Shown: in pieces, positions 875-27,318 of the stretch
Position numbering within the stretch: the first letter of the stretch is position 1
Layout of the letters: each line of letters starts with the position of its first letter
Sequence record: OQ921331.1
DNA length: 42,514 bases
Direction: 5' to 3' (one strand)
Source of the DNA: Escherichia phage vB_EcoP_PAS7
Program-made: the position numbers and the translations under genes
Notes under the pieces: model-generated
Told to the model about the DNA's origin: nothing
The model's input: only the letters and a program-made list of their open reading frames with translations
Database searches by the model: none

Positions 875-1045
875 ATGAACATTCAGAGCATGAACTTCCC
901 GGTAATTATTAAAGATGGTAAGTCAGTTATTACTTTTACTAGCAAGGAAGAAGGTACTTACGAAAGCGGTACAGCTTGCATGTCCAGCCTAGAAGATATG
1001 ATTGTGCGTGTACAGGTTGGTAAGGCTTCAATAGTAACCGAGTAA
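875..1045 (+). CDS. small hypothetical protein (56 aa)
   Basis: ATG at 875 downstream of P1, stop TAA at 1043-1045; below the ORF-track size cutoff, found by manual translation (MNIQSMNFPVIIKDGK...). Confidence 0.3.
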   Translation: MNIQSMNFPVIIKDGKSVITFTSKEEGTYESGTACMSSLEDMIVRVQVGKASIVTE

Positions 1046-1200
1046 CGGTAAGCGCAGGCACGGAGCAGAGCACTAGCCAGCAAGTTAGCGGGAACGATAA
1101 GCCGCTGCCCTCCTGAAGAATCGGGGTAGATAAATAGGTTCTGAGCGTAACGTAGCGTCCTCGGGTTATACAGAGGGAATTACATGAGAAGCTAAGAGAC
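1038..1200 (+). ncRNA. candidate structured RNA element, copy 1 of 3 (divergent copy)
   Basis: Shares ACCGAG, ACGATAAGC, GCCCTCCTGAAG and a hairpin (stem AGAATC 1117-1122 / GGTTCT 1137-1142, loop GGGGTAGATAAATA) with copies 2 and 3; the stem covaries between copies. Confidence 0.4.
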
Positions 1201-1272
1201 AAAGGCTTCGCTAAGATAAGTGCTCTTAGTTAAGCGTTGCATACCGCAGCGCAGACTTAAGAGGATTTAATT

Positions 1273-2986: not shown

Positions 2987-3110
2987 CATCAAGACGTTAC
3001 CGAGAAACGATAAGTCGGCGCCCTTCTGAATCTTCTGGGTGGATAAAACGAAGATGAGCGGTTCCTCCCGTCCACGGATAATTCAGTGGGTCTGAGATGA
3101 AAGTAGTTTT
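2987..3110 (+). ncRNA. candidate structured RNA element, copy 2 of 3
   Basis: Starts at the predicted P2 transcription start. Hairpin stem ATCTTC 3030-3035 / GAAGAT 3050-3055 with loop TGGGTGGATAAAAC; downstream block CGGTTCCTCCCGTCCACGGATAATTCAGTG nearly identical to copy 3. Confidence 0.5.
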
Positions 3111-3158
3111 ACAAAGCCTTCTGCGGAGGGCTTCAATAAAACCACTAAGGAGATAAAG

Positions 3159-3485
3159 ATGAACGCTAAGGCTCAAGCACGTCGTTTCGGTATTTCTGTA
3201 GAAGCAGCTAAAGAGATGGAACGTAACCGTACTGAACTGGTGCAGCTTGCTCAGAAGCCGGAAGGTACTGAAGCACGTAAGGCGCTTAAGAAGTTAATGA
3301 CTCATACTTACAAAGCACAGTCCATTCCCAGCAATGACTTCTCTGATAAAGTATCTCAGCGCGGCAGTAAAGTAGCGGAGTATAAAGAACGCGGCGAACG
3401 CACTTGCCGTCCTAGCAGTAAGACGGATATTAAAGTTAATAGTTACTTTGCATCTAAATCACGTACTCCTAAGGGGATTAAATAA
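3159..3485 (+). CDS. hypothetical early protein (basic)
   Basis: ORF track, 108 aa; AAGGAGATAAAG RBS. Confidence 0.5.
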   Translation: MNAKAQARRFGISVEAAKEMERNRTELVQLAQKPEGTEARKALKKLMTHTYKAQSIPSNDFSDKVSQRGSKVAEYKERGERTCRPSSKTDIKVNSYFASKSRTPKGIK

Positions 3486-5480: not shown

Positions 5481-6744
5481 TTTACTACGCGCTTTCTGTG
5501 AACGTAAGGTAATGGATAGGTTGTACGAACAGACGCCTAAGTCCTTGCTAGCACCTGATACGGTAGCGATGATTGGTTGGCTGCAACTGTACTTCGCAAC
5601 TTATCCTGACTCTAACGAAGTTAACTTTGAGATGATGAATACGCTCTTGGATATGCGAGGGACACATCTTCAGAAAGAGCAGCTGGATATTATGAAGCAT
5701 ATGCTTAAGACTATTCAGAACGTCCCTACTGAGCTTGTAGCAGGTACAGTTAAGACACTGAATGAGCTAGCTTACTCTGGCGAGATGGCTGCACTAGTGA
5801 GCAAGTATCAGGCAGGTGATGAAATAGATTTCGTACAGGAAGCTAAAGCACTTGAGCGTAAGTACTCTGGTGTAGTAGCTGCTAATGATTCATTACTTAA
5901 ATGGGAAGATGGAGGTGTAGATGATATTCTCGCGGCTACTGATGAGTCTGGTGGTCTTAAGCTTACTGTGTTCAGTGAGTTGGCTAGAAACATTCGCGGC
6001 TTGCGGGGTGGTGATTGTGTCGCTGTGGCTGCTCCTGTTGACGCTGGTAAAACTTCTCTCCTTGCTGCTGCAGTAGTTAGCTTAGCTGAGCAGATGCATG
6101 AGCAGAAGGAGATTTACGCGGAGCGTCCTATACTGTGGCTGGTAAATGAATCATTAGCCAAGCGCACTGTTCCTCGTATCTATCAGGCAGCTACTGGGCT
6201 GACTCTTCAGCAGATTGTAGAGCAGCATAAAGAAGGTAAGTTCGCTGATAAGTATCTGAAGAAGGTTGGGACGTGGGATAAGATTCGCGTTAAGGATGCG
6301 CACAGTATGAATCTGGGGCAGATTTCAACCTTACTGGAGGAAATGAAACCTGCTGTTCTAGTAGTAGATATGGTGAGTGGTATCAAGGGCGCGAATGCTG
6401 ACTCAGAACATCAGGCACTGGAGCGTACTTGGCAGGAACTGCGCATCTTAGGCTGTGAGCATGACTGTATTATCATTGGTAGTATGCAGCTATCGGCAGA
6501 AGGTTACGATATGCTCTATCCCCCACTGACTGCTATGAAGCAATCACGCATCGGAGTACAGGGTGCATTAGACCTTTGTATTATGATGGGAAGATTGAAT
6601 GTGAATGATAAGCCGGACATGGCTAACATTCGCGGAATCTCTACCCCAAAATCAAAATTAACTAAGTCCGGCTGTCAGAGCTATGTTCAATTTCAGGTTG
6701 AATTTGACGGAGGACGTTGTCAGTTTAAGGAGGGTACATTATGA
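5470..6744 (+). CDS. replicative DNA helicase (DnaB/T7 gp4-like)
   Basis: Walker A AAPVDAGKTSLL and Walker B-like LVVDMV; ORF track start 5458 is TTG, the ATG at 5470 has a GGAG RBS. Confidence 0.7.
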   Translation: MDFNLLRAFCERKVMDRLYEQTPKSLLAPDTVAMIGWLQLYFATYPDSNEVNFEMMNTLLDMRGTHLQKEQLDIMKHMLKTIQNVPTELVAGTVKTLNELAYSGEMAALVSKYQAGDEIDFVQEAKALERKYSGVVAANDSLLKWEDGGVDDILAATDESGGLKLTVFSELARNIRGLRGGDCVAVAAPVDAGKTSLLAAAVVSLAEQMHEQKEIYAERPILWLVNESLAKRTVPRIYQAATGLTLQQIVEQHKEGKFADKYLKKVGTWDKIRVKDAHSMNLGQISTLLEEMKPAVLVVDMVSGIKGANADSEHQALERTWQELRILGCEHDCIIIGSMQLSAEGYDMLYPPLTAMKQSRIGVQGALDLCIMMGRLNVNDKPDMANIRGISTPKSKLTKSGCQSYVQFQVEFDGGRCQFKEGTL

Positions 6745-7218: not shown

Positions 7219-7371
7219 ATGTTAAAGTCAGAAGACATTACAGAGCAGGACTACGAGGTTATCCGTGCGATAGCTAATAACCGTAAGCAGGTTAAACGCT
7301 ACACGCTGGATAGCAGTGAGATGATTGTACGAGCAGCACTTAACAGAGCACGGCGCGAGGGGTGGAAATGA
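7219..7371 (+). CDS. small hypothetical protein (50 aa)
   Basis: GGGAGGAAG RBS, ATG at 7219, stop TGA at 7369-7371 overlapping the DNA polymerase start. Confidence 0.35.
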   Translation: MLKSEDITEQDYEVIRAIANNRKQVKRYTLDSSEMIVRAALNRARREGWK

Positions 7372-8582
7372 GCAGCATACTGATTTGGGATATTGAAACG
7401 CAGAACGTACCTTACTATGGCGGGGTTGCTACACCTTACTGCCCAGATAACTACATTGTGGAATCAGGCTTCAGGATTGATAGAACTAATCCAGATGGTA
7501 CGGTGACGTGCAGTGATGTAGGTAGCGTGCGTTACGAGTCGCGGGAGGAGTTCATCTCAGCACCTAGTAGTCAGTGGTTGCCTATTCAGGACGATACTTG
7601 GTTAATGGTAATGCATAACGCCGCATATGAGATTAGCTGGGCGTTGACGTTTGCTAGGGAAGAGTTTGAAGCATTCCTGAAACGGGGAGGGCGCGTATTC
7701 GATACAATGCAAGGCGAGTACATTGCCTCAGACTTCCAAAACCTTTACCCATCATTAGATGAGACGGCTCCTAAGTACGGCGGCAGCCACAAGGTTGACG
7801 GCGTTAAACTGCTATGGCAGCAGGGCGTGTTAACAGCAGATATTGACCCTGTACTGCTGCATGAGTATCTAACAGGGCCAGAAGGTGATATCGTAAACAC
7901 AGCGTTATGCTTCTACGGGCAGTGTGCAGTGTTCGCTGAGCGTGGGCAGATGCCTATGGTCTGGGAAAGGATGGATAGTGTACTGGCCTTAGCCTACTGC
8001 GAGTTCAACGGTGTGTACGTAGACATGCCTACAGCCAGAGCTAACCAGAAGGAGCAGGAGGACGCTATAGCAGAGCTGAAGCAGACGCTGCAAGGCTTCT
8101 TACCTGAACTGCCTGAGGGATTTGAGTTCAACTGGAACAGCGGTTATCATATGAGTGCGTTGGTGTACGGCGGTACGGTTAAGTACAAGTGCAAGGTCCC
8201 GTATGACCCGCCAAAGTTTGTAAAGTTCGATGCCTACCTGGCCGATGTTAAGGGTACTCAGCAATACATAGATGTTAATGATTGGCAAGATAGCTGGACG
8301 TACAGCCGTGAAGTGTTTAAGTCTGGACGTAATAAAGGTCTGCCCAAAGTTTACAAGGTGGAAAGTTCAGAGCAGTCTATGAAGTGGGGTGAGCGCCTGT
8401 ATAAGTTCGAAGGGCTTGTGCACATCCAAGACCTACCAGCAGTATTGCAAGAGAAGTACGCAGAGCGCGGAGAGTTCCGAGGTGCTCAGACATTGGCAGA
8501 TGGTACACCTGTGTTCAGTACAGGGACTGATGCTATGAAAGAACTGGCTAACTATTTTATTGGGATGGAAGAGAATGAGTAA
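7368..8582 (+). CDS. DNA polymerase part I (3'-5' exonuclease domain and N-terminal polymerase region)
   Basis: Exo I motif IWDIETQN near the N-terminus; ends at TAA 8580-8582, overlapping the start of part II in another frame. Confidence 0.7.
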   Translation: MSSILIWDIETQNVPYYGGVATPYCPDNYIVESGFRIDRTNPDGTVTCSDVGSVRYESREEFISAPSSQWLPIQDDTWLMVMHNAAYEISWALTFAREEFEAFLKRGGRVFDTMQGEYIASDFQNLYPSLDETAPKYGGSHKVDGVKLLWQQGVLTADIDPVLLHEYLTGPEGDIVNTALCFYGQCAVFAERGQMPMVWERMDSVLALAYCEFNGVYVDMPTARANQKEQEDAIAELKQTLQGFLPELPEGFEFNWNSGYHMSALVYGGTVKYKCKVPYDPPKFVKFDAYLADVKGTQQYIDVNDWQDSWTYSREVFKSGRNKGLPKVYKVESSEQSMKWGERLYKFEGLVHIQDLPAVLQEKYAERGEFRGAQTLADGTPVFSTGTDAMKELANYFIGMEENE

Positions 8583-9729
8583 CAAGGCTTCGGAGTTCTT
8601 CAAGGCATACAGTGAGATGACCTTGCGTGAGAAAGATTTAGGCTTCTATGAGAAGAAGGAATTTAACAAGGACGGTAGCCTGCGTAAGACTACAGGTATG
8701 CTTCCGTATGTAATCCCTCAGAAGGAAGACGGCAGCGGCATCATTCATCACAGATTGAATCACTGCTCAACCACGACCGGACGACTATCAGCATCTAACC
8801 CGAATATGCAGCAGTTGCCGCGTGAATCTAAGGTTAAGCAGATTCTGCGTAGTCGTTACGGTGAGCAAGGTATGATTGCTCAGTGTGACTACTCAGCTAT
8901 GGAAGTTGTAATGGGCTGTGTAATAACAGGTGATAAGAAACTACTATCCTTGCTTGAAGCTGGTACAGATATGCACTGCTATCGTTTAGCATTCCAAGAG
9001 GGTATGCCTTATGAAGAAGTCTACGAGCTTTGCCATAACCCGGATGCACCTAACCATAAGGAATGGAAGAAGAAACGAACAGCAATCAAAACCTTCAGCT
9101 TCGCAGCGCAGTATGGAGCTTCCGCTAAAGGACTGGCGTTCGCCTCTGGTGCCAGCCTGAAGGACGCTGAGAAGTTCTTAGCTAACGAAGAAGCCCTGTT
9201 CCCTGAATCTATTAAGTACCGTGATGTAATTGCAGCAGAGGTAAATCGTACAGCACTGTTAGAGCCTATGCGCCGCGAGCAATCAGATGATGGTAGCTGG
9301 CGTATCTATCGGGAAGGCTATTTTACTGCTCCTTGTGGTACTCGTTACCGCTTCCGTCAGAAACCTGTATGGCGTGAAGGTAAGCAGGTCATGGACTTTA
9401 AACCTACAGAGATGGCTAACTATCCATTTCAAGGTTCAGGTTCTCTGCTTATGCTTATTGCGATGGGTATGATTCTGCGCGCAGGATTAGCTACGGATTG
9501 GGGTAACGGTAGTTGGTGCTTGTTAGCAACTGTACATGACTCCGTATATTGTGACTGTAAAGATGAGTCAACGGCGAGGGAAGTAGGTCAATTAATTAAG
9601 AAATGTATGGAAGGTGCAAGAGATAGAATGCTGCAACTTTGGCCTAACTTCGGAATACTACAGGACGTTAAATTCCCTGCCGAGTGTGGTATTGGTAAAT
9701 CATTTAAAGAGGAGCAGGTACTTGGCTAA
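8575..9729 (+). CDS. DNA polymerase part II (family A palm/fingers)
   Basis: Motif A CDYSAMEVV, motif B RTAIKTFSFAAQYGAS, motif C VHDSVYCD. ATG at 8575 is in the frame of ORF track 8560..9729. Confidence 0.7.
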   Translation: MSNKASEFFKAYSEMTLREKDLGFYEKKEFNKDGSLRKTTGMLPYVIPQKEDGSGIIHHRLNHCSTTTGRLSASNPNMQQLPRESKVKQILRSRYGEQGMIAQCDYSAMEVVMGCVITGDKKLLSLLEAGTDMHCYRLAFQEGMPYEEVYELCHNPDAPNHKEWKKKRTAIKTFSFAAQYGASAKGLAFASGASLKDAEKFLANEEALFPESIKYRDVIAAEVNRTALLEPMRREQSDDGSWRIYREGYFTAPCGTRYRFRQKPVWREGKQVMDFKPTEMANYPFQGSGSLLMLIAMGMILRAGLATDWGNGSWCLLATVHDSVYCDCKDESTAREVGQLIKKCMEGARDRMLQLWPNFGILQDVKFPAECGIGKSFKEEQVLG

Positions 9730-10225
9730 AGTTACTAAACCTATACCGGAAGGCATACGGGAATTTTGGAGATATGATTCTGAGAGTGGGAAATTAATAT
9801 GCATACAAAACATAAAGCGCACTAAGTACAGTGAAGGCATAGTTGCAGCTAGTCTTACAACTACAGGTAATTATCTAAAGCTGAATTTTAATAAGGTAAG
9901 CTACCTTCAGCATCGGGTAGCATGGTTCCTTTACTATAATGAACAACCTCCTGAAGTTATAGACCACAAGGACGGTAACGGCCTTAACAACGCTATAAAC
10001 AACCTGCGTGCTGCAGATGATGGTTGTAACATGATGGACATTACTGTAACTGCTAAATCCACTACAGGTATTAAAGGTGTCATGCCTGTACGGGGAGGTA
10101 AGCTGTTCCGTGCCGAAGTATGTGTAGATGGTAAGCGCTACCAGAAGCACAGCAAGGACGTAGCTTTCTTAGAGCAGTGGGTACAGGCTAAGCGTAAAGA
10201 ATTACACGGAGAGTTTTATAAATAG
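9722..10225 (+). CDS. HNH-AP2 homing endonuclease (paralog 1 of 3)
   Basis: HNH motif EVIDHKDGNGLNNAINNLRA followed by an AP2-like region; no in-frame ATG, likely TTG start at 9722 with an AAGAGGAG RBS; paralogous to 12767..13219 and 19681..20157. Confidence 0.6.
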   Translation: MAKVTKPIPEGIREFWRYDSESGKLICIQNIKRTKYSEGIVAASLTTTGNYLKLNFNKVSYLQHRVAWFLYYNEQPPEVIDHKDGNGLNNAINNLRAADDGCNMMDITVTAKSTTGIKGVMPVRGGKLFRAEVCVDGKRYQKHSKDVAFLEQWVQAKRKELHGEFYK

Positions 10226-10379: not shown

Positions 10380-10510
10380 CATAGCAAGACGTTAACCGAG
10401 GACGATAAGCGGTTGCCCTTCTGAAGTCTCTGGGTAGATAAAACGAGACTGAACGGTTCCTCCCGTACACGGATAATTCAGTGTGATGCAGATGAGAGTC
10501 TAGGAGAAAT
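10380..10510 (+). ncRNA. candidate structured RNA element, copy 3 of 3
   Basis: AGACGTTAACCGAGGACGATAAGCGG...; hairpin stem AGTCTC 10425-10430 / GAGACT 10445-10450 with loop TGGGTAGATAAAAC; downstream block matches copy 2. Confidence 0.5.
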
Positions 10511-10589
10511 AAGACTCGCTAACTTAAGTAGGGTTAGTGATGCAGTCTTCAGAGATTGCAGCCTTAACTTTATTAATAGGAGGTAGTAG

Positions 10590-10782: not shown

Positions 10783-10809
10783 AGCCCTGCGTAGGAAGGG
10801 CTTTATTAT
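10783..10809 (+). terminator. rho-independent terminator
   Basis: Stem AGCCCT 10783-10788 / AGGGCT 10797-10802, then TTATTAT. Confidence 0.5.
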
Positions 10810-10866
10810 AGCACGAATGCTGAGATTTGTACAGTAATAAATTAATTATTTACATAAGGGTTAAAT

Positions 10867-11612
10867 ATGAACTATTTAGATATCTGCGAGAAGTACAATG
10901 TAGGAAGCCTGCGCGACGCTAACCTGCGCGACGCTGACCTGTACGGCGCTAACCTGTACGGCGCTGACCTGCGCGACGCTAACCTGTACGGCGCTAACCT
11001 GTGCGGCGCTGACCTGCGCGACGCTAACCTGTACGGCGCTAACCTGTGCGGCGCTGACCTGCGCGGCGCTAACCTGCGCGGCGCTAACCTGCGCGGCGCT
11101 AACCTGTACGGCGCTAACCTGCGCGGCGCTAACCTGCGCCTAACCTGCGCGGCGCTAACCTGTACGGCGCTAACCTGCGCGGCGCTAACCTGCGCGGCGC
11201 TAACCTGTGCGGCGCTAACCTGTGCGGCGCTAACCTGCGCGGCGCTAACCTGCGCGGCGCTAACCTGTACGGCGCTAACCTGCGCGACGCTAACCTGCGC
11301 GACGCTGACCTGTGCGGCGCTGACCTGCGCGACGCTGACCTGTGCGGCGCTAACCTGCGCGGCGCTGACCTGCATGGGACTGACTTGATTGTAATTTATG
11401 GGGAACAGTACTTTATTAGCCTATACAAGGGAACAGTACGCGCAGGTTGTCAGTCGCATACGATAGCGGAGTGGCGAAGTTTTAGTAAGGAAGAAGTAAT
11501 TGCTATGGACGGGCGTAATTCTCTTAAATACTACCCACGTCTTTTAGACATCATTGATTTTTACTGTGGTAAGGGCGAGCGTCCTGATTGGGTAATGAAA
11601 ATAAACAAGTAA
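10867..11612 (+). pseudogene. pentapeptide-repeat protein, frame disrupted at about 11139-11141 by a 4-nt indel in the tandem-repeat region
   Basis: Frame 1 reads A(D/N)LXX pentapeptide repeats ([15 protein letters not shown]...) up to 11139. The repeat unit AACCTGCGCGGCGCT is shortened to AACCTGCGCCT at 11131-11141; the repeat frame continues in another frame to the stop at 11612, with a non-repeat C-terminal domain (ORF track 11385..11612). Confidence 0.55.
10921..11370. repeat. tandem 15-bp repeat array (about 30 units, consensus AACCTGCGCGGCGCT)
   Basis: Direct reading: 15-nt units with variants GAC/AAC, TAC/TGC/CGC and GGC/GAC; one truncated unit near 11131-11141. Confidence 0.9.
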
Positions 11613-11696: not shown

Positions 11697-12683
11697 ATGC
11701 CGCGCATCAATGCCATTAAACTCTTCACTAAAGAACAGCACCAAGAAATTCTGAGCAAGTATAAATCAAACGCTGAGGCAGCAGCAGCATACAACGCAGC
11801 ATCTGGTTTAGATGAACCTGTGGCTTATCGTCAGCTTGTTAAGTACTGGCGCAGAATCTACGAAGCAGCTAATGGCAGTAAAGCGAAAGCTAATAAAGGG
11901 CTGGTTGAAGCGCGTAAGCTAATACAACCTTCCCCTACAGATGATATCGGTAATACTGATGTTCCTGACATGTGTCGCCGTATTCTTGTCATTGGTGACC
12001 TGCACGCTCCTTACACCCACCCTGATGCCCTCGATTTCCTTCGTTCTGTCCGAGACAGTTACGGTCCTGACATGGTTGTTCAGGTAGGTGACGAGACTGA
12101 CGGGCACGCTATTAGCTTCCATGACTCTGACCCGGACTTGGATAGCGCAGGTGTTGAACTTGAGAAAGCTAAGCAGTATCTAGCTAAGGTGCATGACCTG
12201 TTCCCTAACCTGCTGGTGTGCGACTCGAACCACGGTAGCTTGGTGTACCGCCGCGCTAAAGCGCATGGCCTGCCAGTACAGTTCATTAAAAAGTACCGCG
12301 ATATCCTGTTCCCAGAACACGGTGCTAAGAAGTGGAGCTGGTCAGACGCTTGGGTATTGAATACTCCGACCGGACCAGTACGCTTCCAACATCAAGTATC
12401 TGGTGACCTTATGCTGAACGCTTCGCATGAACGCACCAGCATGGTAATCGGTCACCACCATGCGTTATACGATATTAAGTATGCAGCAAGCAGCACGGCA
12501 TTGTACTTCGGTGCGCATGCAGGTTGCTTGATTGACCACAAAGCTATGGCCTTTGCTTACGGTAAGCTGACTCGTAATAAGCCTATCCTCGGTGTAATGA
12601 CTATTACCGAAGGATGTCCTAGTCTGATTCCTATGCTACTGGATGCGGAAGGACGTTGGGTTAATCGTAAGAAGAAACGCTAA
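11697..12683 (+). CDS. calcineurin-like metallophosphoesterase
   Basis: Metallophosphatase motifs VIGDLH, GDETDGH and DSNHGS. Confidence 0.6.
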   Translation: MPRINAIKLFTKEQHQEILSKYKSNAEAAAAYNAASGLDEPVAYRQLVKYWRRIYEAANGSKAKANKGLVEARKLIQPSPTDDIGNTDVPDMCRRILVIGDLHAPYTHPDALDFLRSVRDSYGPDMVVQVGDETDGHAISFHDSDPDLDSAGVELEKAKQYLAKVHDLFPNLLVCDSNHGSLVYRRAKAHGLPVQFIKKYRDILFPEHGAKKWSWSDAWVLNTPTGPVRFQHQVSGDLMLNASHERTSMVIGHHHALYDIKYAASSTALYFGAHAGCLIDHKAMAFAYGKLTRNKPILGVMTITEGCPSLIPMLLDAEGRWVNRKKKR

Positions 12684-12766: not shown

Positions 12767-13219
12767 ATGACTGAAGAGTTAATACGCGAATACCTTGCGC
12801 TAGACCCTTCTAGTCCTACTAATCTGAAGTGGATTAAGACTTCTGGCAGCCGGGTTAAGTTAGGGTCTGTGCAAGGTTATCTAAACTCGCATGGTTATGT
12901 TAAGGTTAAACTCAAAGGAAAGGCGCTGTCGCTGCATCGCGCAGTGTTCTTATTACATTATGGATACCTTCCATATGAGGTAGATCATGTAAATAGGGAT
13001 AAGACTGATAACAGACCTGATAATCTTAGAGCAGCAACTAGAAGCTCTAACTGCCATAATAAGAACTGCACGGGATTTAACTTTGATAAGAAGTCACAGA
13101 AGTTTAGAGTCCGTGTGCAAGTAACTACCACTAAGCGAATTACTGTAGGCTGGTATGATAGTCCATTTGAGGCTAGGGCAGCTTACTTAACGTTCAAAAC
13201 AGCTAACAATCTAATCTAA
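12767..13219 (+). CDS. HNH-AP2 homing endonuclease (paralog 2 of 3)
   Basis: EYLALDPSSPTNLKWIK N-terminus, HNH motif VDHVNRDKTDNRPDNLRA, AP2-like C-terminus; close paralog of 19681..20157. Confidence 0.65.
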   Translation: MTEELIREYLALDPSSPTNLKWIKTSGSRVKLGSVQGYLNSHGYVKVKLKGKALSLHRAVFLLHYGYLPYEVDHVNRDKTDNRPDNLRAATRSSNCHNKNCTGFNFDKKSQKFRVRVQVTTTKRITVGWYDSPFEARAAYLTFKTANNLI

Positions 13220-14046: not shown

Positions 14047-14068
14047 ACGCCCCGCAAGGGGCTTTTAA
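14047..14068 (+). terminator. rho-independent terminator (GNRA-loop hairpin plus T run)
   Basis: GCCCC-GCAA-GGGGC at 14049-14062 followed by TTTT. Confidence 0.5.
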
Positions 14069-16745: not shown

Positions 16746-19196
16746 ATGAAACACGAATCATTAGAACAGAAAGTAGAACGTCAGGTACAGCTAGAGAAGG
16801 ATTACCGTACACGTAGCCTGAATAAGTCACGTGAGCTTGTACAGAAAGCTATGCAAGCTGGTAATCTTTCAAGCCTGCCTAAGGTATCTCGTATGATTGC
16901 AGCTGCTTACGACACCGTAGCAGCAGGCATTGACGAGATGAAGGCAGAGAAAACAGCAGGCGTAGGCGGCAAGTACCGCAGCGTTATACGTCTGGTTCCT
17001 ACGGATGTACTGACCGTGATGACTTTAACTAAGTGTTTCGATGCCCTCTTTGTATCTGAAGGCGGCAGCTCTCGCGTGAGTGCTGGTACTCTGCTGGCTA
17101 ATATTGGTCGTCAGGTACAGGCAGAAGTCCTAAGCATTCAGCTTGAGACTGTAGCACCTGCATACATGAACCGAGTGTTCGAGTACTTGAAAGAACGTAA
17201 TACTACCAGCCCTTCCCACATCATGAAGACACTGCGCGCTTCAGCTGAGAATGTGCACTTAGGGCATGAGCCGTGGAGCAACTCTCAATGTGTAGCGGTA
17301 GGTAAGCTCCTGCTTCAACCAGCTTGGGAGACGGGCCTGTTCCAGTGGGATAAGGCTACCGATGCCACCCGCATGTCCTACCTTGCACCTGCACCTGAAT
17401 TAGCCGAGCACTTGCAAGAACTGGTAGAAGATGCAGATACAGTAGATATCAAGCCGCCTATGCTGGTTAAGCCTAACCGCCACGATACACTGTTCTCCGG
17501 CGGTTACCTGCTCCCTTCTACCTGTAAGCGTGGTACTTATCACAACCGCCAGATTACTCGCAGCATGAAGCGCGATGTGTCTGACGCATTCAAGGAAGCG
17601 ACTGAACTTAAGTCTGCTCTGAATAAGTCTCAAGAAGTTCCTTACGTAATTAACAAGCAGATTCTTAACCTGATTAATGAGGCGCGTCGTACTGGAGTAA
17701 CTGCCGGTATGCCCAGCGCTTTCCCTGCTCCTAAACCTGAATGGTATCTGGACGGTGTACCTAAAGAAGAGTACACAGAGCGTCAGATGGATGACTTCCA
17801 AACTTGGAAGATGAACATGCGCAACTGGTACATCAATGAGCGTGCAAGGGTAAGTAAGCTGCGTTCCTTGATTTCACTGGTTCAGATTTGCGAAGAGTTT
17901 AAAGATGAAGAAGAGCTGTACTTCCCAACCTGCGTTGACTGGCGCTACCGTCTGTACTTCAAATCAAGCCTGCATCCTCAAGGTTCTGACATGCAAAAAG
18001 CTCTGCTGTCCTTCGGTCGGGCAAAGCCTCTGGGAGAGCGGGGTCTGTTTTGGCTCAAGGTACACGTCGCTACCTGCTATGGTTATGATAAGGCCTTATT
18101 CGAAAAGCGTGCAGCTTGGACTGATGCTAATATCGAGCAGATTCGACTTGTCGCATCAAGTCCGTTTAATGCAGAGGCTTTTAAAAGTGCCGACAGTCCG
18201 TGGTGTTTTCTGGCTGCCTGCATCGACCTCGTTGCTGCTCTTGACTCTGAAAGCCCAGAGCTTTACGAATCGCGGCTTCCGGTGGCTATGGATGCAACCA
18301 ACTCTGGCAGCCAGCACTTCTCAGCTCTACTGCGTGACCCAGTAGGCGGTAAACTTACTAACCTGTTCTGGGAAGGTAACGAAGAGAAAGCGGATATGTA
18401 CATGGACGTTAAGCAGCGTACTGATGCTAAGGTCATCATGGACTTGGACAATCCTGAGTTCGTAGTACAGGCTCAGTTCTGGCGTGAGAACGAGATTACT
18501 CGTAGCATGACCAAGCGCCCTTGCATGACACACGTATACTCTGCAACTGTTCGCTCGTGCTCTGAGTACATCCTCCAGTCTGCGCAGGAGGAAGGCTACG
18601 AAGGCACTGAGGAGTACAGCCTGTTCAAGCTGGCAGGTTACCTGAGTGGACGTATGAAGGCGGCGGTAGAGGACGCTAACCCAGCGGCTACAGCAGCAAT
18701 GAAGTACCTGCAATCCCTGTGCTATAAAGTTCCGGCAGCCAATCACCTGCAATGGAAGACTCCGCTAGGTGGTCTGGTTATTAATCGTTACACTGAGTCT
18801 GAAGAGACTACAGTCAAGGTTAAGAGCATGAACTTATCGCACCTGCTTATCTATAACCGTAACTACGATGTAAACAACAAGCGTAAGGCTAAGTCAGGTA
18901 TCTCCCCTAACTGGATTCACAGCTTAGATGCCACGCACTTGATGATGACTATTAATGCGTTCGAAGGTGATATCATGCCTATTCACGATTCAGTAGCTAC
19001 ACATGCTTGTGATGTAGATGTAATGCAGAAGGCAGTACGCGAGCAGTTCGTGCGCCTGTACACTGAGCACGATGTACTGCAAGAGATTACTGACGCAGCC
19101 GTAGAATGCGGCGCTGACTTGGAAGGTTTAGAAATGCCTGTTAAAGGTAATCTTAATATCCAATTAGTGAAGGAATCCCCGTTCTTCTTCTGCTGA
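16746..19196 (+). CDS. single-subunit DNA-dependent RNA polymerase (T7 RNAP family)
   Basis: 816 aa; DATNSGSQHFSALLRD matches the T7 RNAP catalytic motif DGSCSGIQHFSAMLRD; NWIHSLDATHLMM matches motif C. Placement before the structural genes is typical of phiKMV-like phages. Confidence 0.9.
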   Translation: MKHESLEQKVERQVQLEKDYRTRSLNKSRELVQKAMQAGNLSSLPKVSRMIAAAYDTVAAGIDEMKAEKTAGVGGKYRSVIRLVPTDVLTVMTLTKCFDALFVSEGGSSRVSAGTLLANIGRQVQAEVLSIQLETVAPAYMNRVFEYLKERNTTSPSHIMKTLRASAENVHLGHEPWSNSQCVAVGKLLLQPAWETGLFQWDKATDATRMSYLAPAPELAEHLQELVEDADTVDIKPPMLVKPNRHDTLFSGGYLLPSTCKRGTYHNRQITRSMKRDVSDAFKEATELKSALNKSQEVPYVINKQILNLINEARRTGVTAGMPSAFPAPKPEWYLDGVPKEEYTERQMDDFQTWKMNMRNWYINERARVSKLRSLISLVQICEEFKDEEELYFPTCVDWRYRLYFKSSLHPQGSDMQKALLSFGRAKPLGERGLFWLKVHVATCYGYDKALFEKRAAWTDANIEQIRLVASSPFNAEAFKSADSPWCFLAACIDLVAALDSESPELYESRLPVAMDATNSGSQHFSALLRDPVGGKLTNLFWEGNEEKADMYMDVKQRTDAKVIMDLDNPEFVVQAQFWRENEITRSMTKRPCMTHVYSATVRSCSEYILQSAQEEGYEGTEEYSLFKLAGYLSGRMKAAVEDANPAATAAMKYLQSLCYKVPAANHLQWKTPLGGLVINRYTESEETTVKVKSMNLSHLLIYNRNYDVNNKRKAKSGISPNWIHSLDATHLMMTINAFEGDIMPIHDSVATHACDVDVMQKAVREQFVRLYTEHDVLQEITDAAVECGADLEGLEMPVKGNLNIQLVKESPFFFC

Positions 19197-19255: not shown

Positions 19256-19684
19256 ATGAGCAATACATTAAACACAGCACAATACACAACACATCTCTAC
19301 AATTGGAACAACTCTTCTGATTACATAATCAGCATTGTTAAACAATTGCATGTATGGGGTATTGGTATCCAGTTAGGAATGGATGAGGAAGAGCATTTCC
19401 AGAAGGTTGTGCAAGAGATACAAGGACACAGTGTATTAGCAGTATTCAGCGGTGATGAGCTAATCGGAGGCGTAAGTATTATTCCTCAGTTATTAGAGAA
19501 TAGTCATTATACAGGTAAGAGTATGGCTACAGGATTTATGGTAGTCGAGCCTTATCACCCTAAAGCAGTTGCTACGCTCTACAGGAATTTAAAACGAATC
19601 GTTCGGGAGAACGGTGCAGACTGGCTTATATTCACACGTGCAGTATCTGACGTGGATTACTTACAGAAGGGGATTAAGCTTTGA
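19256..19684 (+). CDS. hypothetical protein
   Basis: ORF track, 142 aa. Confidence 0.45.
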   Translation: MSNTLNTAQYTTHLYNWNNSSDYIISIVKQLHVWGIGIQLGMDEEEHFQKVVQEIQGHSVLAVFSGDELIGGVSIIPQLLENSHYTGKSMATGFMVVEPYHPKAVATLYRNLKRIVRENGADWLIFTRAVSDVDYLQKGIKL

Positions 19685-20157
19685 AAGGTATTGAAGAATA
19701 CATAGCTTTAGACCCAAGTAGCCCTACGTATCTTAGCTGGATTAAGGCACCTCTTAGAGGACGTGTTAAAGTCGGCGAGCCGGCATTAATTTCCTTAAGC
19801 AAGACTAATTACTATCGTGGGAAGTTTCAGCAAAAGAACCTGCTTGCGCATCGCGTGGTGTACTACCTCGCTACTGGAATTGAACCTCCAGCAATGCTAG
19901 ACCATACAGACGGTAACAGGCAGAACAACAACCCAGATAACTTAAGGGCAGTAACTGCTCGAGAGAACAATCACAATAGGCATGCATGTAAAGGCTACCA
20001 CTGGCGAAGTAACAGAAATCACTGGTGCGCTCAGATACATGTAGATGGGAAGGAGATATACCTAGGCTCCTTTCAAACTGAAGCGGAAGCTAGGGCAGCT
20101 TATCTAGAAGGTAAGCGGATATACCACCCAAGTGCACCGGTACATTTACTTAACTAA
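19681..20157 (+). CDS. HNH-AP2 homing endonuclease (paralog 3 of 3)
   Basis: TTG start overlapping the upstream stop, AAGGGG RBS; EYIALDPSSPTYLSWIK, HNH motif LDHTDGNRQNNNPDNLRA, AP2-like C-terminus. Confidence 0.6.
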   Translation: MKGIEEYIALDPSSPTYLSWIKAPLRGRVKVGEPALISLSKTNYYRGKFQQKNLLAHRVVYYLATGIEPPAMLDHTDGNRQNNNPDNLRAVTARENNHNRHACKGYHWRSNRNHWCAQIHVDGKEIYLGSFQTEAEARAAYLEGKRIYHPSAPVHLLN

Positions 20158-20226
20158 CATAGCGCCTTCGGGCGGGAGGGTAGCATCATCGGCGGGATTA
20201 AGAAAGCATTATCATCAGTTACAGAT

Positions 20227-20448
20227 TTGGTTGGATTGACTGATACAGCGGCGCTGGAAGCACAGCAGAAGGCGGCGCGTGAACAACAGGAAGCACTGCA
20301 AGCGCAGGCAGCTCTGGATAACGATCAGTCTGGAGAAAATCTCACGCAGGTTGAATCTGGTGGTGCAGCTAATGCATCCGGTGCATCTATTACAGCAGAC
20401 CAGCGCAAGCGCCGTCAGGGTGCAGCATCAACTGCCTTAGGTATCTAA
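20227..20448 (+). CDS. hypothetical protein (start uncertain)
   Basis: ORF track starts at TTG; the frame is open back to the HNH stop at 20157 with no ATG. Confidence 0.3.
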   Translation: MVGLTDTAALEAQQKAAREQQEALQAQAALDNDQSGENLTQVESGGAANASGASITADQRKRRQGAASTALGI

Positions 20449-20449
20449 T

Positions 20450-22006
20450 ATGCAGAAGCGTCTATCCGAACTGTTTGTTAAATTAAAGGACCCTTCAGTT
20501 CTAGACGCTAGTGAACAGTTCGCTAACTGGACTCTTCCTAACGTCTTTACTAAGGATATCTCCGGTAACGATGGTAGACGCACTTCACTTCAACGCGATT
20601 ACCAAAGTACTGGGGCACTACTAATTAACTCAGCTGCAACTAAGATTGCAAACGCCTTGTTTCCACAAGGTAGTCCATTCTTTAGATTTGCAGATTCAGA
20701 AGAGCTTGCTAGTGTAATAAGCGAGCTTGGTATTCAAGGTACTGTATTCTCAGCTCAGGCAGAGATGGAGGACACAGCATCAAGTCTAGTATTTACTCGT
20801 GGCGGCTACGCAGCTAAGCTACGTGCCACTAAGCTCCTGCTTGTAACTGGTAATGCCTTAGAGTACTTCGATGACAGCACAGGACGTAGCTACATCTACA
20901 GTGTACGTGATTACGTAACTAAGCGAGATGGTGCAGGTAATGTCTTAATGACAGTTCTGCGTGAGCGTATCAGCGTAGCAGACATCCCAGACGATATCAG
21001 AAGTGCACACTTTGCACAGAAAGATACTTACGATGATGTCGCGCTCTATACTGGTATCATGCGTGAGAACCGAGAGACGGGTGCTGTATATAAAGTTTAT
21101 CAAGAAGTAGAAACCTTCCCTGTTGGCGAGGCTAGTTACTACCCTGAGAACGAATGCCCTTATATTGTGTTAGCATGGAACCTAGTTAACGGTGAGCATT
21201 ACGGACGTGGCCTTGTTGAAGACTATGCCGGAGACTTTGCACGATTATCAGTTCTGAGTAAGAGCCTGACCTTGTATGAGGTTGAAGCTGCTCGCGTAGT
21301 GAATATGGTATCCTCTGCCTCTGGTGTAGATATCGACTCATTACAGGATGCTGAGACAGGTGAGTTCGTACAGACTAACCAGCCTGCTGGTTCTCAGTCT
21401 GGGGTATGGGCACACGAAGGTGGTAATGCTCAGAAGATTAACTCACTACAGCAAGAGATTCAGTTGCTGGAGCAGAAGCTGGCACGTGCATTCATGTACG
21501 GAGGCAATACTCGTCAAGGCGAGCGTGTAACGGCTTATGAGATTCGTCAGAATGCTCAGGAAGCTCAGGCTGCTCTAGGCGATGCTTACTCTACACTTGC
21601 AGATAATTGGCTTCGTAGACTCGCGTACTTGTACGTTCTGAATAAATACCCTGAGATTAAACCTCAGCTTGACCTCGGCATTATGTCATTAGACGTAACC
21701 GTAGGTACTGCTTCCTTATATAAGGCTGCACAAGCAGACCGTTTACTTGAGGCAGTTCAGAGCCTGCAATTAATTGTACCAGTCCTACAGCAGAGTACTG
21801 CACGTACTAACGTAGATGCGTTGATTGATACCGTACTAGATAGCTTCGGCGTACAGTCTAATAAGTTCTTCTATACAGAGGAAGAGCTACAGGCTATGCA
21901 GCAGCAGCAACAAGCACAGCAGCAGCAGGACGTTCAGGCACAGCAGTCATTACTGCAAGCTCAGGACCCTACTATCGCTGGTGAGCAATTAGGTTTAATT
22001 CCATAA
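20450..22006 (+). CDS. head-to-tail connector (portal) protein
   Basis: 518 aa, first large gene of the structural block, poly-Q C-terminus; size and position match T7 gp8-like portals. Confidence 0.65.
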   Translation: MQKRLSELFVKLKDPSVLDASEQFANWTLPNVFTKDISGNDGRRTSLQRDYQSTGALLINSAATKIANALFPQGSPFFRFADSEELASVISELGIQGTVFSAQAEMEDTASSLVFTRGGYAAKLRATKLLLVTGNALEYFDDSTGRSYIYSVRDYVTKRDGAGNVLMTVLRERISVADIPDDIRSAHFAQKDTYDDVALYTGIMRENRETGAVYKVYQEVETFPVGEASYYPENECPYIVLAWNLVNGEHYGRGLVEDYAGDFARLSVLSKSLTLYEVEAARVVNMVSSASGVDIDSLQDAETGEFVQTNQPAGSQSGVWAHEGGNAQKINSLQQEIQLLEQKLARAFMYGGNTRQGERVTAYEIRQNAQEAQAALGDAYSTLADNWLRRLAYLYVLNKYPEIKPQLDLGIMSLDVTVGTASLYKAAQADRLLEAVQSLQLIVPVLQQSTARTNVDALIDTVLDSFGVQSNKFFYTEEELQAMQQQQQAQQQQDVQAQQSLLQAQDPTIAGEQLGLIP

Positions 22007-22015
22007 GAGGTTATA

Positions 22016-22834
22016 ATGTCAGAAGCAATTCAAGATGTATCTAGCGCCGTTCCAGAAACTACTGTTATTGAGAACGTTGGCGGTCCTAAGATTCCTGGGC
22101 CTCAAGGTGGCGTCAAAGCTCCGAACATGCAAGGAGTAGCACAGCCACAGGAACAAGAAGTTCCAGCAGCGTTAGATATTCAGGCACTGGCGCAGTCACT
22201 TAACAAATCAGAGACTGTTACTACTGAAGAGAAAGAACTTGCAGAGACAGGCAACCCGGCAATTGATGCTGGTATCGCCATGCTTAAACAGGTAGCTAAA
22301 CTGAATGACGCAGATATGGTCCGTGCCATTGGTAAGGCAGTTGAGCGTGGTGATGCTACTCTAATTGATACGGCATTTATTAAGGAACGCTTCGGCGAAC
22401 ATGCTGCATATGCAGAGCTATTAGCTAAGGCTTATCTGGATGACCAAGTAGGTCAAGCTCAGAAAGCAGTTAACTCGGCATATGAAGCAGCAGGTGGCAA
22501 GGAGAAGTGGGAAGCAGCTGCGCAGGTATTTAATGCAAAGGCCCCTCAGCATCTTCGTAACGCGGCACGTGCTTTAGCAGACTCTGGAGATATTCAGGGC
22601 GCCTCTAAGCTCGTACTGGAAACATGTCAATCAATGGGAATGATTGCTCAGGTTAACCCTATGCTGAAAGGCGGTGCGGGTACAGCTGGTGCACTTACTG
22701 CCCAAGCGTTCTCTGAAGAGTACGCTAAACTCCGTAAAGAGGTCGGCAACCGTAGCCTAGAATCTAGTGCTTTCAACGGTCGCTACCAAGAGCTTCTTGC
22801 TCGTCGTGCTGCTGGTAAACGCGCTGGCATTTAA
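22016..22834 (+). CDS. capsid assembly scaffolding protein
   Basis: 272 aa, Ala/Glu-rich, between portal and major capsid protein. Confidence 0.55.
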   Translation: MSEAIQDVSSAVPETTVIENVGGPKIPGPQGGVKAPNMQGVAQPQEQEVPAALDIQALAQSLNKSETVTTEEKELAETGNPAIDAGIAMLKQVAKLNDADMVRAIGKAVERGDATLIDTAFIKERFGEHAAYAELLAKAYLDDQVGQAQKAVNSAYEAAGGKEKWEAAAQVFNAKAPQHLRNAARALADSGDIQGASKLVLETCQSMGMIAQVNPMLKGGAGTAGALTAQAFSEEYAKLRKEVGNRSLESSAFNGRYQELLARRAAGKRAGI

Positions 22835-22852
22835 TGTAATAAGAGGTATTTA

Positions 22853-23044
22853 ATGAGTACAGTAGTTGAGGTAGTTTATAAGGACGGAACTTCAGAGGTT
22901 CTTGAAGGTTATACCGAGGTAAATGGAGGTAACACCGGGGCATTTCTGTTAGTTAGTGCTTACCCTGAGTCACCTTCCCTTCCTAGAATTTACTTTAGCC
23001 CAGAAGCAATTAAATGCGTTAAGAAGTACACTCAAGTAGATTAA
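22853..23044 (+). CDS. hypothetical small protein
   Basis: ORF track, 63 aa. Confidence 0.4.
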   Translation: MSTVVEVVYKDGTSEVLEGYTEVNGGNTGAFLLVSAYPESPSLPRIYFSPEAIKCVKKYTQVD

Positions 23045-23103
23045 AACTTGAATTTGCATCAGTAATAAACTCTATCTTTTAACTTTAATAGGAAATACAT
23101 AAC

Positions 23104-24096
23104 ATGGCTGATACTGCATACACTGGCAACTCTACTCGTCCACATTGGGGCGGCGCGTCCTCCGACGTTGATATTCATCTGGAAGTTTACCAGAATGAAG
23201 TAGATTCCCGCTTCGAATACCAAGCACTGTTCTTGGGCCTGTCTTCTCAGCGCTCTACTGCTGACCGCTCTAACACCTACCGTATTGACCGCCTGAACAC
23301 TTCTAGCGTTAAGGGCCGTCAGTCTGGTGTAGCTCTGGACCCGACCCCAGTACGTAACGATAAGATGATTATCGTAGTTGATACCGTACTGTACATCCGT
23401 AACCCGATTGACTATCAGGATGACTGGACTGCTCCAGACTTCCTTACCGAGATGGGTCAGAACAACGGTTACGAGTTCGCTGAGACCTTCGACCAAGCGC
23501 ACCTCATTCAGCTGATTAAGGGCCGTTCTTGGACTGCTCCAGAACATCTGAAGCCTGCATTCTCTGATGGTATCGAAATCGCTGCTACTCTGTCACTTGA
23601 CCCTGCCGATCAGGACCGTATGGAACTGGACGCTATGCGCATTAATGAGGCGCACAAGAAAGGTGTTGATGAGCTGATTAAGCGTAAGGTTCCGCTGGGT
23701 GATATGGTTACTCTGGTATCTACTGAGATTTACTCTAAGCTGCTGGAACATCCTAAGCTGTTCAACCGTGACTTCGGTGACTCCAACCTTGACGGCTTCA
23801 AGCAGCGTCGTGCTGTAGTTATGAATGGTATTCCGGTTGTCGAAGCTGTAGAGTTCCCAGAAGCCGGCGCGCATCCGCTGGGCAGTGCTTACACTGTTAC
23901 TGCTGATGATGCTGCTTGCCGTATGGTAACCTTCAGCAAGTCTAAGACTCTGGTAACTGTAGAAGCTAAGCCGTTCACCGCCCGTATTTGGGACGATGAG
24001 CTGAACTTCGCTAACGTGCTGGACTGCTACGCAATGTACACCGTCGGTAACCGCCGCCCGGATACTGCCGCTGTAGTCAAATTCACTTACGCTTAA
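23104..24096 (+). CDS. major capsid protein
   Basis: 330 aa; highly biased codon usage; followed by a strong terminator; position after scaffold. Confidence 0.7.
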   Translation: MADTAYTGNSTRPHWGGASSDVDIHLEVYQNEVDSRFEYQALFLGLSSQRSTADRSNTYRIDRLNTSSVKGRQSGVALDPTPVRNDKMIIVVDTVLYIRNPIDYQDDWTAPDFLTEMGQNNGYEFAETFDQAHLIQLIKGRSWTAPEHLKPAFSDGIEIAATLSLDPADQDRMELDAMRINEAHKKGVDELIKRKVPLGDMVTLVSTEIYSKLLEHPKLFNRDFGDSNLDGFKQRRAVVMNGIPVVEAVEFPEAGAHPLGSAYTVTADDAACRMVTFSKSKTLVTVEAKPFTARIWDDELNFANVLDCYAMYTVGNRRPDTAAVVKFTYA

Positions 24097-24105
24097 GGAT
24101 AGGTA

Positions 24106-24306
24106 ATGGCCTTACTGGCAAGCATTGGTGCAAAGCCCATGACTAAACGTTATGAAGCTAAGCGTGCGCTTAAGCAAGTGGAAGTCGAGCTTAAACGAGT
24201 ATCTCCAGAAGCTACTGCTGAAGAGGTAATCGAAGTAGTTGTAAGCGTACTTAAATCTAAGCTCGGTGTAGCTGAGCCAAAGAAGAAAGCTAAGAAAGCT
24301 GAATAA
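24106..24306 (+). CDS. hypothetical small protein with Lys-rich C-terminus
   Basis: ORF track, 66 aa, immediately upstream of the terminator. Confidence 0.4.
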   Translation: MALLASIGAKPMTKRYEAKRALKQVEVELKRVSPEATAEEVIEVVVSVLKSKLGVAEPKKKAKKAE

Positions 24307-24310
24307 CACT

Positions 24311-24350
24311 GAGCCCCGTATCCTTAATTGGGTGCGGGGCTTTTGTCGTT
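24311..24350 (+). terminator. rho-independent terminator downstream of the capsid gene (T-phi analogue)
   Basis: Stem GCCCCG 24313-24318 / CGGGGC 24335-24340 followed by TTTTGTCGTTT. Confidence 0.6.
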
Positions 24351-24407
24351 TCTAGACCCTTATCTTTTAAGTTCTAATCCCAGAGCTTAAAATATAGGAG
24401 ACTAATC

Positions 24408-24962: not shown

Positions 24963-24970
24963 AGGTACTC

Positions 24971-27304: not shown

Positions 27305-27318
27305 CAAGGAGGCTGCCT

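Follow-up and report, generated by a model that had tools for sequence, protein, structure and literature searches.

A pseudoknotted leader RNA downstream of the host-type promoters of Escherichia phage vB_EcoP_PAS7 and related enterobacterial podoviruses

What is the structured element that recurs downstream of the early promoters of Escherichia phage vB_EcoP_PAS7, and what might it do there? The window analyzed here is the whole 42.5-kb stretch of record OQ921331.1 (42,514 nucleotides), a podovirus genome whose nearest annotated relative is Escherichia phage vB_EcoP_P64441 (Autographivirales, Slopekvirinae). The gene for the phage RNA polymerase (RNAP) lies at 16746-19196, far from the left end of the window. 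An original prediction had described three copies of an element with a covarying stem next to sigma70 promoters, one of them at 2987-3110, and had read them as promoter-proximal, cis-acting leader RNAs. This reading survived the tests described below, which also revealed a predicted pseudoknot and a wide distribution among related phages.

Three copies of one element follow host-type promoters

A repeat search of the window returned a single dispersed repeat family with three members (1077-1191, 2990-3104 and 10385-10499). The core pattern ACGATAAG-N5-GCCCTYCTGAA occurred three times against a chance expectation of 0.01, and two covariance models, R1 and R2, each matched exactly three loci in the window and no fourth. 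By these agreeing lines the three-copy family is real. Copy 1 (type 1, 1077-1190) scored 123.8 bits with R1 and 66.7 bits with R2, copy 2 (type 2, 2990-3103, the locus that was noticed originally) 143.5 and 65.7 bits, and copy 3 (type 3, 10385-10498) 153 and 71.3 bits.

All three copies lie on the sense strand, 3' of a near-consensus promoter of the host sigma70 type. The four best sigma70-like sites within the first 24 kb are P1 (811-839, TTGACT-17-TATAGT, 10 of 12 consensus positions), P2 (2952-2980, TTGACG-17-TATAGT), P3 (10229-10257, TTGACA-17-TATAGT) and P4 (10345-10373, TTGACA-17-TAAGAT), all on the plus strand. P1, P2 and P4 are as had been described, and P3 is a further promoter that stands in tandem with P4. 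Koutsourovirus and Drulisvirus have a homologous arrangement in their left-end tandem promoters.

The proposed position directly 3' of a promoter was borne out for copies 2 and 3, which begin ~10 nt past the -10 hexamer, but not for copy 1. The latter starts ~260 nt beyond the -10 hexamer of P1, with a 56-codon open reading frame (ORF; 875-1045, plus strand) inserted in between. In P64441 and L004 the orthologous promoter abuts copy 1 directly with no ORF between them, and a tblastn search with the 56-codon ORF gave no match in any relative examined. At the end of the ORF lies a degenerate partial duplicate of stem-loop A (AACCGAGTAACGGTAAGCG, 1036-1058, plus strand), which resembles AACCGAGGACGATAAGCGG of copy 3 and is probably the scar of an insertion or recombination. 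The hexamer ACCGAG, thought to be common to all copies, is common to copies 2 and 3 only, where it forms the 5' strand of the covarying stem A; the ACCGAG of copy 1, at 1038, lies in this partial duplicate. A longer string, CGGTTCCTCCCGTmCACGGATAATTCAGTG, was confirmed in both copies 2 and 3.

Compensatory changes define the fold of the leader core

Our comparisons show each copy to be the core of a structured 5' leader RNA made by the host sigma70 RNA polymerase. In 5' to 3' order this core comprises a conserved single-stranded AGCAAGACGUUA, hairpin A, an H-type pseudoknot, hairpins C and D, and a GAUGAGAG tail. The extent first given to the element was too short, since the element takes in a conserved 5' AGCAAGACGTTA, four hairpins and the pseudoknot, and copies 1 and 3 add three more hairpins up to the ribosome-binding site.

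In copy 1, stem A lies at 1087-1091/1102-1106, the pseudoknot helix S1 at 1107-1110/1124-1127, loop L1 at 1111-1116, stem B at 1117-1122/1137-1142, the A-rich loop L3 at 1128-1136, hairpin C at 1145-1158 and hairpin D at 1159-1176, with the tail reaching 1190. The corresponding parts of copy 2 are stem A at 3000-3003/3015-3018, S1 at 3020-3023/3037-3040, L1 at 3024-3029, stem B at 3030-3035/3050-3055, L3 at 3041-3049, C at 3058-3071, D at 3072-3089 and a tail to 3103; those of copy 3 are stem A at 10394-10398/10410-10414, S1 at 10415-10418/10432-10435, L1 at 10419-10424, stem B at 10425-10430/10445-10450, L3 at 10436-10444, C at 10453-10466, D at 10467-10484 and a tail to 10498. The stems quoted in the original prediction (AGTCTC/GAGACT, ATCTTC/GAAGAT, and AGAATC/GGTTCT with one G-U) are all present in the sequence, and so are the 14-nt loops. 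These loops are indeed conserved, but the description as a plain, near-invariant loop did not hold, as they are really composed of L2, the 3' strand of S1 and the A-rich L3.

We compared nine window-type copies, namely three from the window, three syntenic ones from P64441 and three from two IMG/VR contigs, in a structure-aware alignment (a MAFFT version was also made). The nine copies sort into three orthologous types, which implies that the triplication is older than the split of these phages, whose genomes are ~78% identical. Judged from this sorting, the triplication is old and each copy is separately maintained. The four hairpins were 97.2% paired, compared to 28-42% with slid partners, and 13 of 20 pairs had changed on both sides. 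Stem B was 100% paired with covariation at all six pairs, while four of the five pairs of stem A covaried. Folding of single sequences gave no energy signal (z 0 to +1.6); the structural evidence is thus comparative and not thermodynamic.

Covariation held, and grew, when homologs were added from the nine copies to 38 distinct cores of at least six lineages. In this larger set, on which R2 was built and to which pattern scans of IMG/VR contributed ~30 further distinct versions, the whole structure was 91.6% paired (35-48% with slid partners), compensatory changes occurred at 19 of 22 pairs and stem B was 99.6% paired. RNAalifold independently recovered stems B, C and D. The abundance of G-U pairs, 31 at one pair for example, assigns the structure to the sense strand. 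Pairing of the 5' AGCAAG region with the 3' GAUGAG tail into a closing stem was also considered and rejected; only type 2 copies could form it. Selection on RNA structure, as originally argued, and the status of a new family seem to us hardly open to doubt.

The leader core contains an H-type pseudoknot

In the window type, S1 would pair GCCC with GGGU, connected by an L1 of 6 nt (UYCUGA), the 6-bp stem B, an L2 of 0-1 nt and an A-rich L3 of 9 nt (AGAUAAAAC). The GCCC directly 5' of stem B and the GGGU at the start of loop B are invariant within this type. Because the S1 strands do not vary within the clade, their pairing can be tested only between genera.

Between genera the S1 segments differ and their complementarity is kept. 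The strands are GGGGC/GCCCC in the Drulisvirus type (SFN6B, Minorna and IMG/VR contigs), GGGGAC/GUCCCC in IMG/VR contigs L148 and L160, CGGGGC/GCCCCG in IMG/VR contig L144 (also in L133, L163 and L166), GGGGAG/CUCCCC in Peggy and PP16, GGGCAU/GUGCCC in CB5 and IMG/VR contigs L140, L141 and L147, UGGCGC/GCGCCA in IMG/VR contig L139, UGGCAG/CUGCCA in IMG/VR contig L169, GGUCC/GGACC in phiKDA1 and L128, and GGGUC/GGCCC in Entb_48. One S1 position is A-U in Pec, G-U in KKP and G-C in L125. The geometry is constant throughout the family, with an L1 of 5-6 nt (GCUGAG or UYCUGA), an L2 of 0-2 nt and an A-rich L3 of 7-11 nt (URAAAGAAU or AGAUAAAAC).

A rule-based search recovered S1 in every lineage, with 10-395 of 5000 shuffles being as good, so that each lineage beats 92-99.8% of them. 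In the 38-core alignment S1 was 89% paired compared to 45-61% with slid partners, and its covariation score was 0.75 compared to 0.08-0.27. None of 500 shuffles reached the covariation of S1, and five of its six pairs showed compensatory changes. A separate MAFFT alignment (A4) was out of register at the pseudoknot and was left out of the counting. The loop lengths are compatible with S1 and stem B forming together, and from the sequence alone a mutually exclusive switch between the two would also be possible. The predicted pseudoknot within the leader is new relative to the original observation.

The module is widespread among KP34-like and KMV-like phages

A search of related phages and of Rfam with covariance models, as had been suggested, found homologs in several genera and none in Rfam. 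Model R1 gave weak matches in Koutsourovirus phages, behind tandem promoters homologous to P3 and P4. The module was then recognized 3' of consensus promoters in Drulisvirus (SFN6B, Minorna) and Cronobacter phage Peggy. As family detectors, R1 and the nhmmer profiles were too narrow, missing the copies of Drulisvirus, Peggy and Buco. The broader model R2 gave one hit each in Minorna, SFN6B, Peggy, KKP 3828, SDFMU_Pec, phiKDA1, Entb_48, EhYP and Buco, the last of which scored 72.8 bits although it lay outside the training set. The Corkvirinae phages PP16 and CB5 also had one hit each (80-82 bits), and the window and P64441 had three each.

BLAST with one Drulisvirus copy matched at least 196 GenBank phage records at one locus per record; by organism name these were phages of Klebsiella (162), Pectobacterium (14), Escherichia (10), Shigella (4), Erwinia (2) and others. 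Most of the matched loci are unannotated and a few are labeled hypothetical protein. Such coding sequences span the module in CB5 (gp03, L172 1080-1382) and in several other records, and they are probably mis-annotated structured RNA.

The coding strand carries all 41 module instances, 38 of which have a TTGAC-N16-18-TAnnnT promoter 33-270 nt upstream. The ordinary genome carries exactly one copy, behind its left-end tandem early promoters, and copy 3 of the window is the ortholog of this single copy. In the clade of the window, each of the three sigma70 promoter regions has a copy of its own. Seen across these genomes, the three copies are a clade-specific local expansion of a normally single-copy module. 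The family appears to be common to KP34-like and KMV-like enterobacterial podoviruses (Slopekvirinae, Corkvirinae) and to be previously undescribed.

The sole intergenic near-consensus sigma70 promoters of phiKDA1, together with the leader, stand ahead of ~18 kb of early and middle genes, the last being that for the phage RNAP. Immediately 5' of these tandem promoters and leader, phiKDA1 has a strong intrinsic terminator (GGGGAAGCAC...GTGCTTCCC + TTTTT; L107 1815-1850), which insulates the leader-headed unit from two left-end genes. In the family the distance of the module from the transcription start varies from 33 to 260 nt, and at least 42 nt, with differing hairpins, separate it from the start codon. 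Conservation of L1, L3 and loop D extends over phages that infect six host genera and have no early genes in common between genera. A presence/absence comparison across the module-bearing phages examined found no early protein that co-occurs with the module.

The module is combined with different extensions and is exchanged in close relatives

The leaders of copies 1 and 3 and those of Koutsourovirus run on into hairpins E, F and G and end at the Shine-Dalgarno sequence (SD); E and G covary. In copy 1 this extension, also supported by nhmmer, occupies 1186-1272 (plus strand), with the SD (AAGAGG) ahead of the ATG at 1273. The 3' part of leader 3 (10495-10589, plus strand) has diverged E/F/G-like hairpins up to its SD, ahead of the ATG at 10590, and gave a weak nhmmer match at 10491-10565. 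In place of E-F-G, copy 2 has a single 7-bp hairpin with a UGCG loop (3115-3132, plus strand) between the core and the SD of ORF 3159-3485; this hairpin is kept in P64441 and L004 and has no U-tract. The longer leaders of other genera include an extra conserved 5' domain, and SFN6B has a long hairpin of ~14+ bp between module and SD.

In ECO104 4-5-2, S.Kent 1-2-1 and IMG/VR contig L124, whose RNAP is ~85% identical, the whole A-to-D module is replaced at the same three sites. The replacement module has covarying hairpins and a GAUAAC loop but no pseudoknot, while CUGAAG, GAACG, AUGAG and the E-F-G extension are kept. It was located at 5640-5835, 39085-39290 and 40940-41125 of L105 and at ~3090-3330 and ~5030-5267 of L124. 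All copies in these relatives appear to have been replaced together. PhiM1 represents another variant, with a diverged pseudoknot, hairpin C kept and a different D region.

The metallophosphoesterase gene (11697-12683 in the window) is found with 71-89% amino acid identity in all pseudoknot-bearing genera examined and is missing from L105 and L106. The presence/absence comparison yielded no phage partner for the module; the product of this gene was the only conserved protein missing from the variant-leader genomes, where it was lost with a larger deletion. The window segment 10851-13207 has no counterpart in L105 and L106, and the loss is probably a coincidental deletion.

The module matches none of the RNA families examined

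Rfam 15, searched with the window copies and two full-length leaders at gathering and permissive thresholds (E<=10), returned no family, the best scores being at chance level (E>=3). In the searchable literature we found no account of this leader. Both results agree with the suggestion that the family was undescribed. ARAGORN detected no tRNA-like or tmRNA-like fold, and blastn against 5,426 complete E. coli genomes found no similar sequence. Among the genomes of 100,044 species in GTDB, the pattern of hairpin D occurred in three unrelated genomes only, at 12-17 bits compared to 60-84 bits for true copies. A 16-base core pattern gave 96 loci in metagenomes, all of which the covariance model identified as chance matches.

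The element had been said to recall, and yet to match neither, the put antitermination RNAs of phage HK022 and the early RNase III sites of T7, and this proved correct. Models R1 and R2 had no hit in the HK022 early region 20000-34000, which we take to include the put sites from the known map (put is not annotated in the record). The T7 sites are long (~20 bp) irregular duplexes. The module resembles them as a structured element of host-RNAP early transcripts in a T7-supergroup phage, and differs from them in its helices of 4-7 bp, its conserved loops and its pseudoknot.

The lambda nut sites and rrn boxA are likewise promoter-proximal RNA signals that stand, in two or more copies, on early transcripts ahead of long operons. 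By comparison with the boxA and boxB consensus sequences, however, the module lacks a boxB-type 5-bp stem with a GNRA-like pentaloop, and no boxB-like hairpin was seen in the window leader sequences. A boxA-like string in the copy 1 extension (TGCTCTTAGTTAA) is taken up by pairing, as the 3' strand of hairpin F, and shows no conservation as boxA. Pfam and PHROGs searches of the neighboring early ORFs found no RNA-binding or N-like family. The basic 108-aa protein encoded after copy 2 (N-terminus MNAKAQARRFG), which we had considered as an N-like factor, matches only a PHROG of unknown function and is absent from most module-bearing genera. Two other resemblances were also dismissed. An ops-like CGGTAG in loop D varies at position 7 (A/T/C) and does not occur in the window type, and GATAAT in loop D of copies 2 and 3, reminiscent of the -10-like pause element of putL, is not conserved in other types.

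A possible role in host-polymerase antitermination

What could a conserved pseudoknot do in the leaders of host-made transcripts? By analogy with put, the most likely function, inferred at a probability of about 35%, is that of a cis-acting modifier of host RNAP processivity. The nascent leader RNA would fold as it leaves the host polymerase and act in cis on its own elongation complex or transcript. Host transcription would thereby be made processive and resist Rho-dependent and/or intrinsic termination, and the host enzyme could then cross the long early/middle block, up to ~18 kb, to the phage RNAP gene.

Each sigma70 promoter region has one module, with three maintained paralogs for three regions, which suggests cis action on each host-RNAP unit. 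An action on the transcription unit is also suggested by what follows the module, namely up to ~18 kb of host-transcribed genes of which the phage RNAP gene is the last. As neither the spacing from the 5' end nor that from the start codon is constant, a 5'-end cap is disfavored, and so is an operator that overlaps the ribosome site. Considering that the joining loops are conserved across six host genera without common early proteins, the partner is expected to be a host factor, and we infer that the elongation complex itself is the most economical candidate. Two terminator-like hairpins 3' of copy 3 also count for antitermination: a weak one past the first gene downstream (10783-10802, plus strand) and an intrinsic-terminator-like one between copy 3 and the phage RNAP gene (GCCCCGCAAGGGGC + TTTT, 14049-14062, plus strand; not conserved in P64441).

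The put RNAs bind the zinc-binding domain of the RNAP beta' subunit and suppress termination and pausing. The module is like them in lying on the sense strand 3' of host sigma70 early promoters with one paralog per early promoter (three of three regions in the window), in the apparent absence of a dedicated phage protein, and in its compact fold with likely base triples. A further likeness is that one copy is promoter-proximal and another lies a few hundred nt on (putR ~270 nt, copy 1 of the window ~260 nt). In HK022, put RNAs act in cis just after PL and ~270 nt after PR, contain a base triplex and need no phage protein (PMC9378689). They are ~70 nt long and consist of two long irregular stem-loops in a V shape, with the triplex in stem I (PMC9378689). 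Where put has long stems, the module has a pseudoknot helix of 4-6 bp, a stem of 6 bp and short hairpins. It shows no sequence or model similarity to put, and it is carried by a virulent podovirus that has an RNAP of its own and is no lambdoid phage. That the module represents a second, structurally unrelated class of protein-independent antiterminator RNA, used by virulent KP34/KMV-like phages, is a tentative proposal that we rate as doubtful. On this view the emerging pseudoknot would bind the host elongation complex and render it resistant to termination, so that the host enzyme could be taken over ~18 kb to the gene for the phage polymerase.

Several observations weigh against a polymerase modifier. 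The intrinsic terminators downstream are few, weak and not conserved. The fold, a pseudoknot with short hairpins, is unlike the two long irregular stems of put, and the models miss HK022. The replacement of the module at all three sites in ECO104 4-5-2, S.Kent 1-2-1 and L124 is easier to reconcile with a changeable phage or defense partner than with the invariant host RNAP. Finally, proximity to promoters fits several other cis functions equally well.

One such function, unlikely on balance, is RNA processing or stability. A host RNase (RNase E, RNase P, or RNase III on the flanking hairpins) would recognize the module or be blocked by it, which would set the 5' end and half-life of early mRNAs, as the T7 early RNase III sites do. 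The module stands in the 5' leader of every host-made early transcript, a host partner is favored, and the extra hairpins between module and SD (E-F-G, the ~14+ bp hairpin of SFN6B, and 3115-3132) could be cleavage or protection sites for the downstream mRNA. However, helices of 4-7 bp are too short for RNase III, no tRNA-like fold was found by ARAGORN, a position 33 to 260 nt from the 5' end does not suit a 5'-terminal cap, and the near-invariance of L1, L3 and the D loop across genera exceeds what a protective hairpin needs. These loops could instead be bound by a regulatory protein, either a middle or late phage protein or a host RNA-binding protein, that tunes or shuts off early transcripts through translation or decay. 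Such an operator, which we consider rather improbable, would explain why paralogs within a genome have identical loops, as expected for one trans factor, and why all three copies changed together in the L105 lineage. H-type pseudoknot operators are known in the 5' leaders of T4 gene 32, E. coli rpsO (S15) and the alpha operon (S4), where they lie on or next to the ribosome-binding site of a single autoregulated gene. In contrast, the module is set off from that site by 42 nt or more of variable structure, which makes direct occlusion of the ribosome site unlikely, and it precedes unrelated genes and heads whole early operons. Moreover, no early protein tracks the module, and no RNA-binding or N-like family is found among the neighboring ORFs. 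A riboswitch-like sensor, in which the pseudoknot would bind a small molecule or ion that reports host physiology and would gate early transcription, is very improbable. With its compact H-type fold, its invariant joining loops and the A-rich L3, the pseudoknot is reminiscent of several pseudoknot riboswitch classes, and the conserved, aptamer-like core occupies a 5' leader. Nevertheless, no Rfam riboswitch matches, and 3' of the module there is no alternative terminator/antiterminator pairing, U-tract or SD-pairing partner. The gene sets downstream, at three places and in many genera, are unrelated and have no single metabolic function, and close relatives manage with a different module.

A decoy against host defense is quite improbable but merits attention, because TenpI antitoxins have a pseudoknot of like layout. 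The pseudoknot would mimic a type III antitoxin RNA (ToxI/TenpI-like) or another host RNA, and its bulk synthesis early from the strongest promoters would neutralize an abortive-infection endoribonuclease, with triplication raising the dose. The TenpI antitoxins of Klebsiella and E. coli have been described as two-stemmed H-type pseudoknots in which a run of adenosines is set against stem 1 (PMC12283969). The S1-L1-B-L3 segment (~37 nt) has the same layout, with its A-rich loop next to stem 1, and a similar size. Phage TE provides a precedent for phages that carry and amplify antitoxin mimics, as it escapes ToxIN through RNA mimicry of the antitoxin by its pseudo-ToxI (PMC5377504), and wholesale replacement of the module in close relatives fits an arms race. 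Type III antitoxins (ToxI, CptI, TenpI), however, precede their toxin gene as tandem repeats of 1.9-5.6 units flanked by a promoter and a terminator (PMC3401426), whereas the module copies are single and dispersed, never in tandem, always joined to hairpins C and D, and without an adjacent toxin gene or terminator. Nothing similar was found by blastn in the E. coli genomes or with the hairpin D pattern in the GTDB genomes, and no Rfam family matched. PhiM1, despite its diverged pseudoknot, falls to abortive infection by both ToxIN and TenpIN, and its only route of escape is through a protein gene (PMC5377504). One conserved copy in ~200 phages of many hosts also fits poorly with sporadic defense systems. 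Least of all would we expect a DNA-level signal, such as a protein site or single-stranded DNA origin, or a small coding sequence, a possibility that is practically negligible. The repeats adjoin promoters, a few GenBank records annotate a hypothetical protein over the module, and mechanical minus-strand ORFs overlap the element (939-1202 and 2997-3176). Against this, and in line with the original preference for RNA over a coding or DNA-level signal, four helices and the pseudoknot covary, the frequent G-U pairs would be A-C mismatches on the opposite strand, indels and stem swaps destroy the reading frame, and the orientation always follows transcription.

Should the module prove to be a polymerase modifier, RNA-only antitermination would for the first time be seen outside lambdoid phages, by means of a new fold, and the expression of a polymerase gene far from the only host promoters would be explained. 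Even if it served as a decoy or processing signal, a new and widespread phage RNA of defined structure would have been recognized. Among Klebsiella phages, the KP34-like group ranks with those most often isolated and most used in therapy. Yet ~200 genomes leave the conserved pseudoknotted RNA in the first 100-300 nt of the early transcripts, the stretch that every host polymerase makes first, without annotation or present it as a protein. The covariance model enables correct annotation of these leaders, and the module offers a compact part for synthetic biology.

Other features of the genome

Just 3' of leader copy 3, ORF 10867-11388 (173 aa) coincides with a 15-nt periodic tandem repeat (26 registers, 10818-11463). 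The P64441 ortholog, one of two genes of this kind there, is labeled a pentapeptide-repeat protein, and the relatives L105 and L106 lack the gene. The DNA polymerase is encoded by two overlapping ORFs (7362-8582 and 8560-9729), annotated likewise in P64441, and by a single 2.4-kb gene in phiKDA1. This could be a split gene or a programmed frameshift. Several paralogous HNH/AP2-type endonuclease ORFs (9614-10225, 12767-13219 and 19681-20157) have repeated DNA segments in common (D10, D12, D15) and look like homing endonucleases scattered through the replication module. In ORF 38915-40018, 9-nt periodic Gly-X-Y-like repeats (GGTCCAGTA and similar; repeat families D3 and D5) suggest a collagen-like stretch in the tail-fiber region. 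The window begins exactly at an ATG and its last ~490 nt (42021-42514) are non-coding and partly pyrimidine-rich; the sequence appears to be a rotated or permuted genome with the physical end region at the right end of the window.

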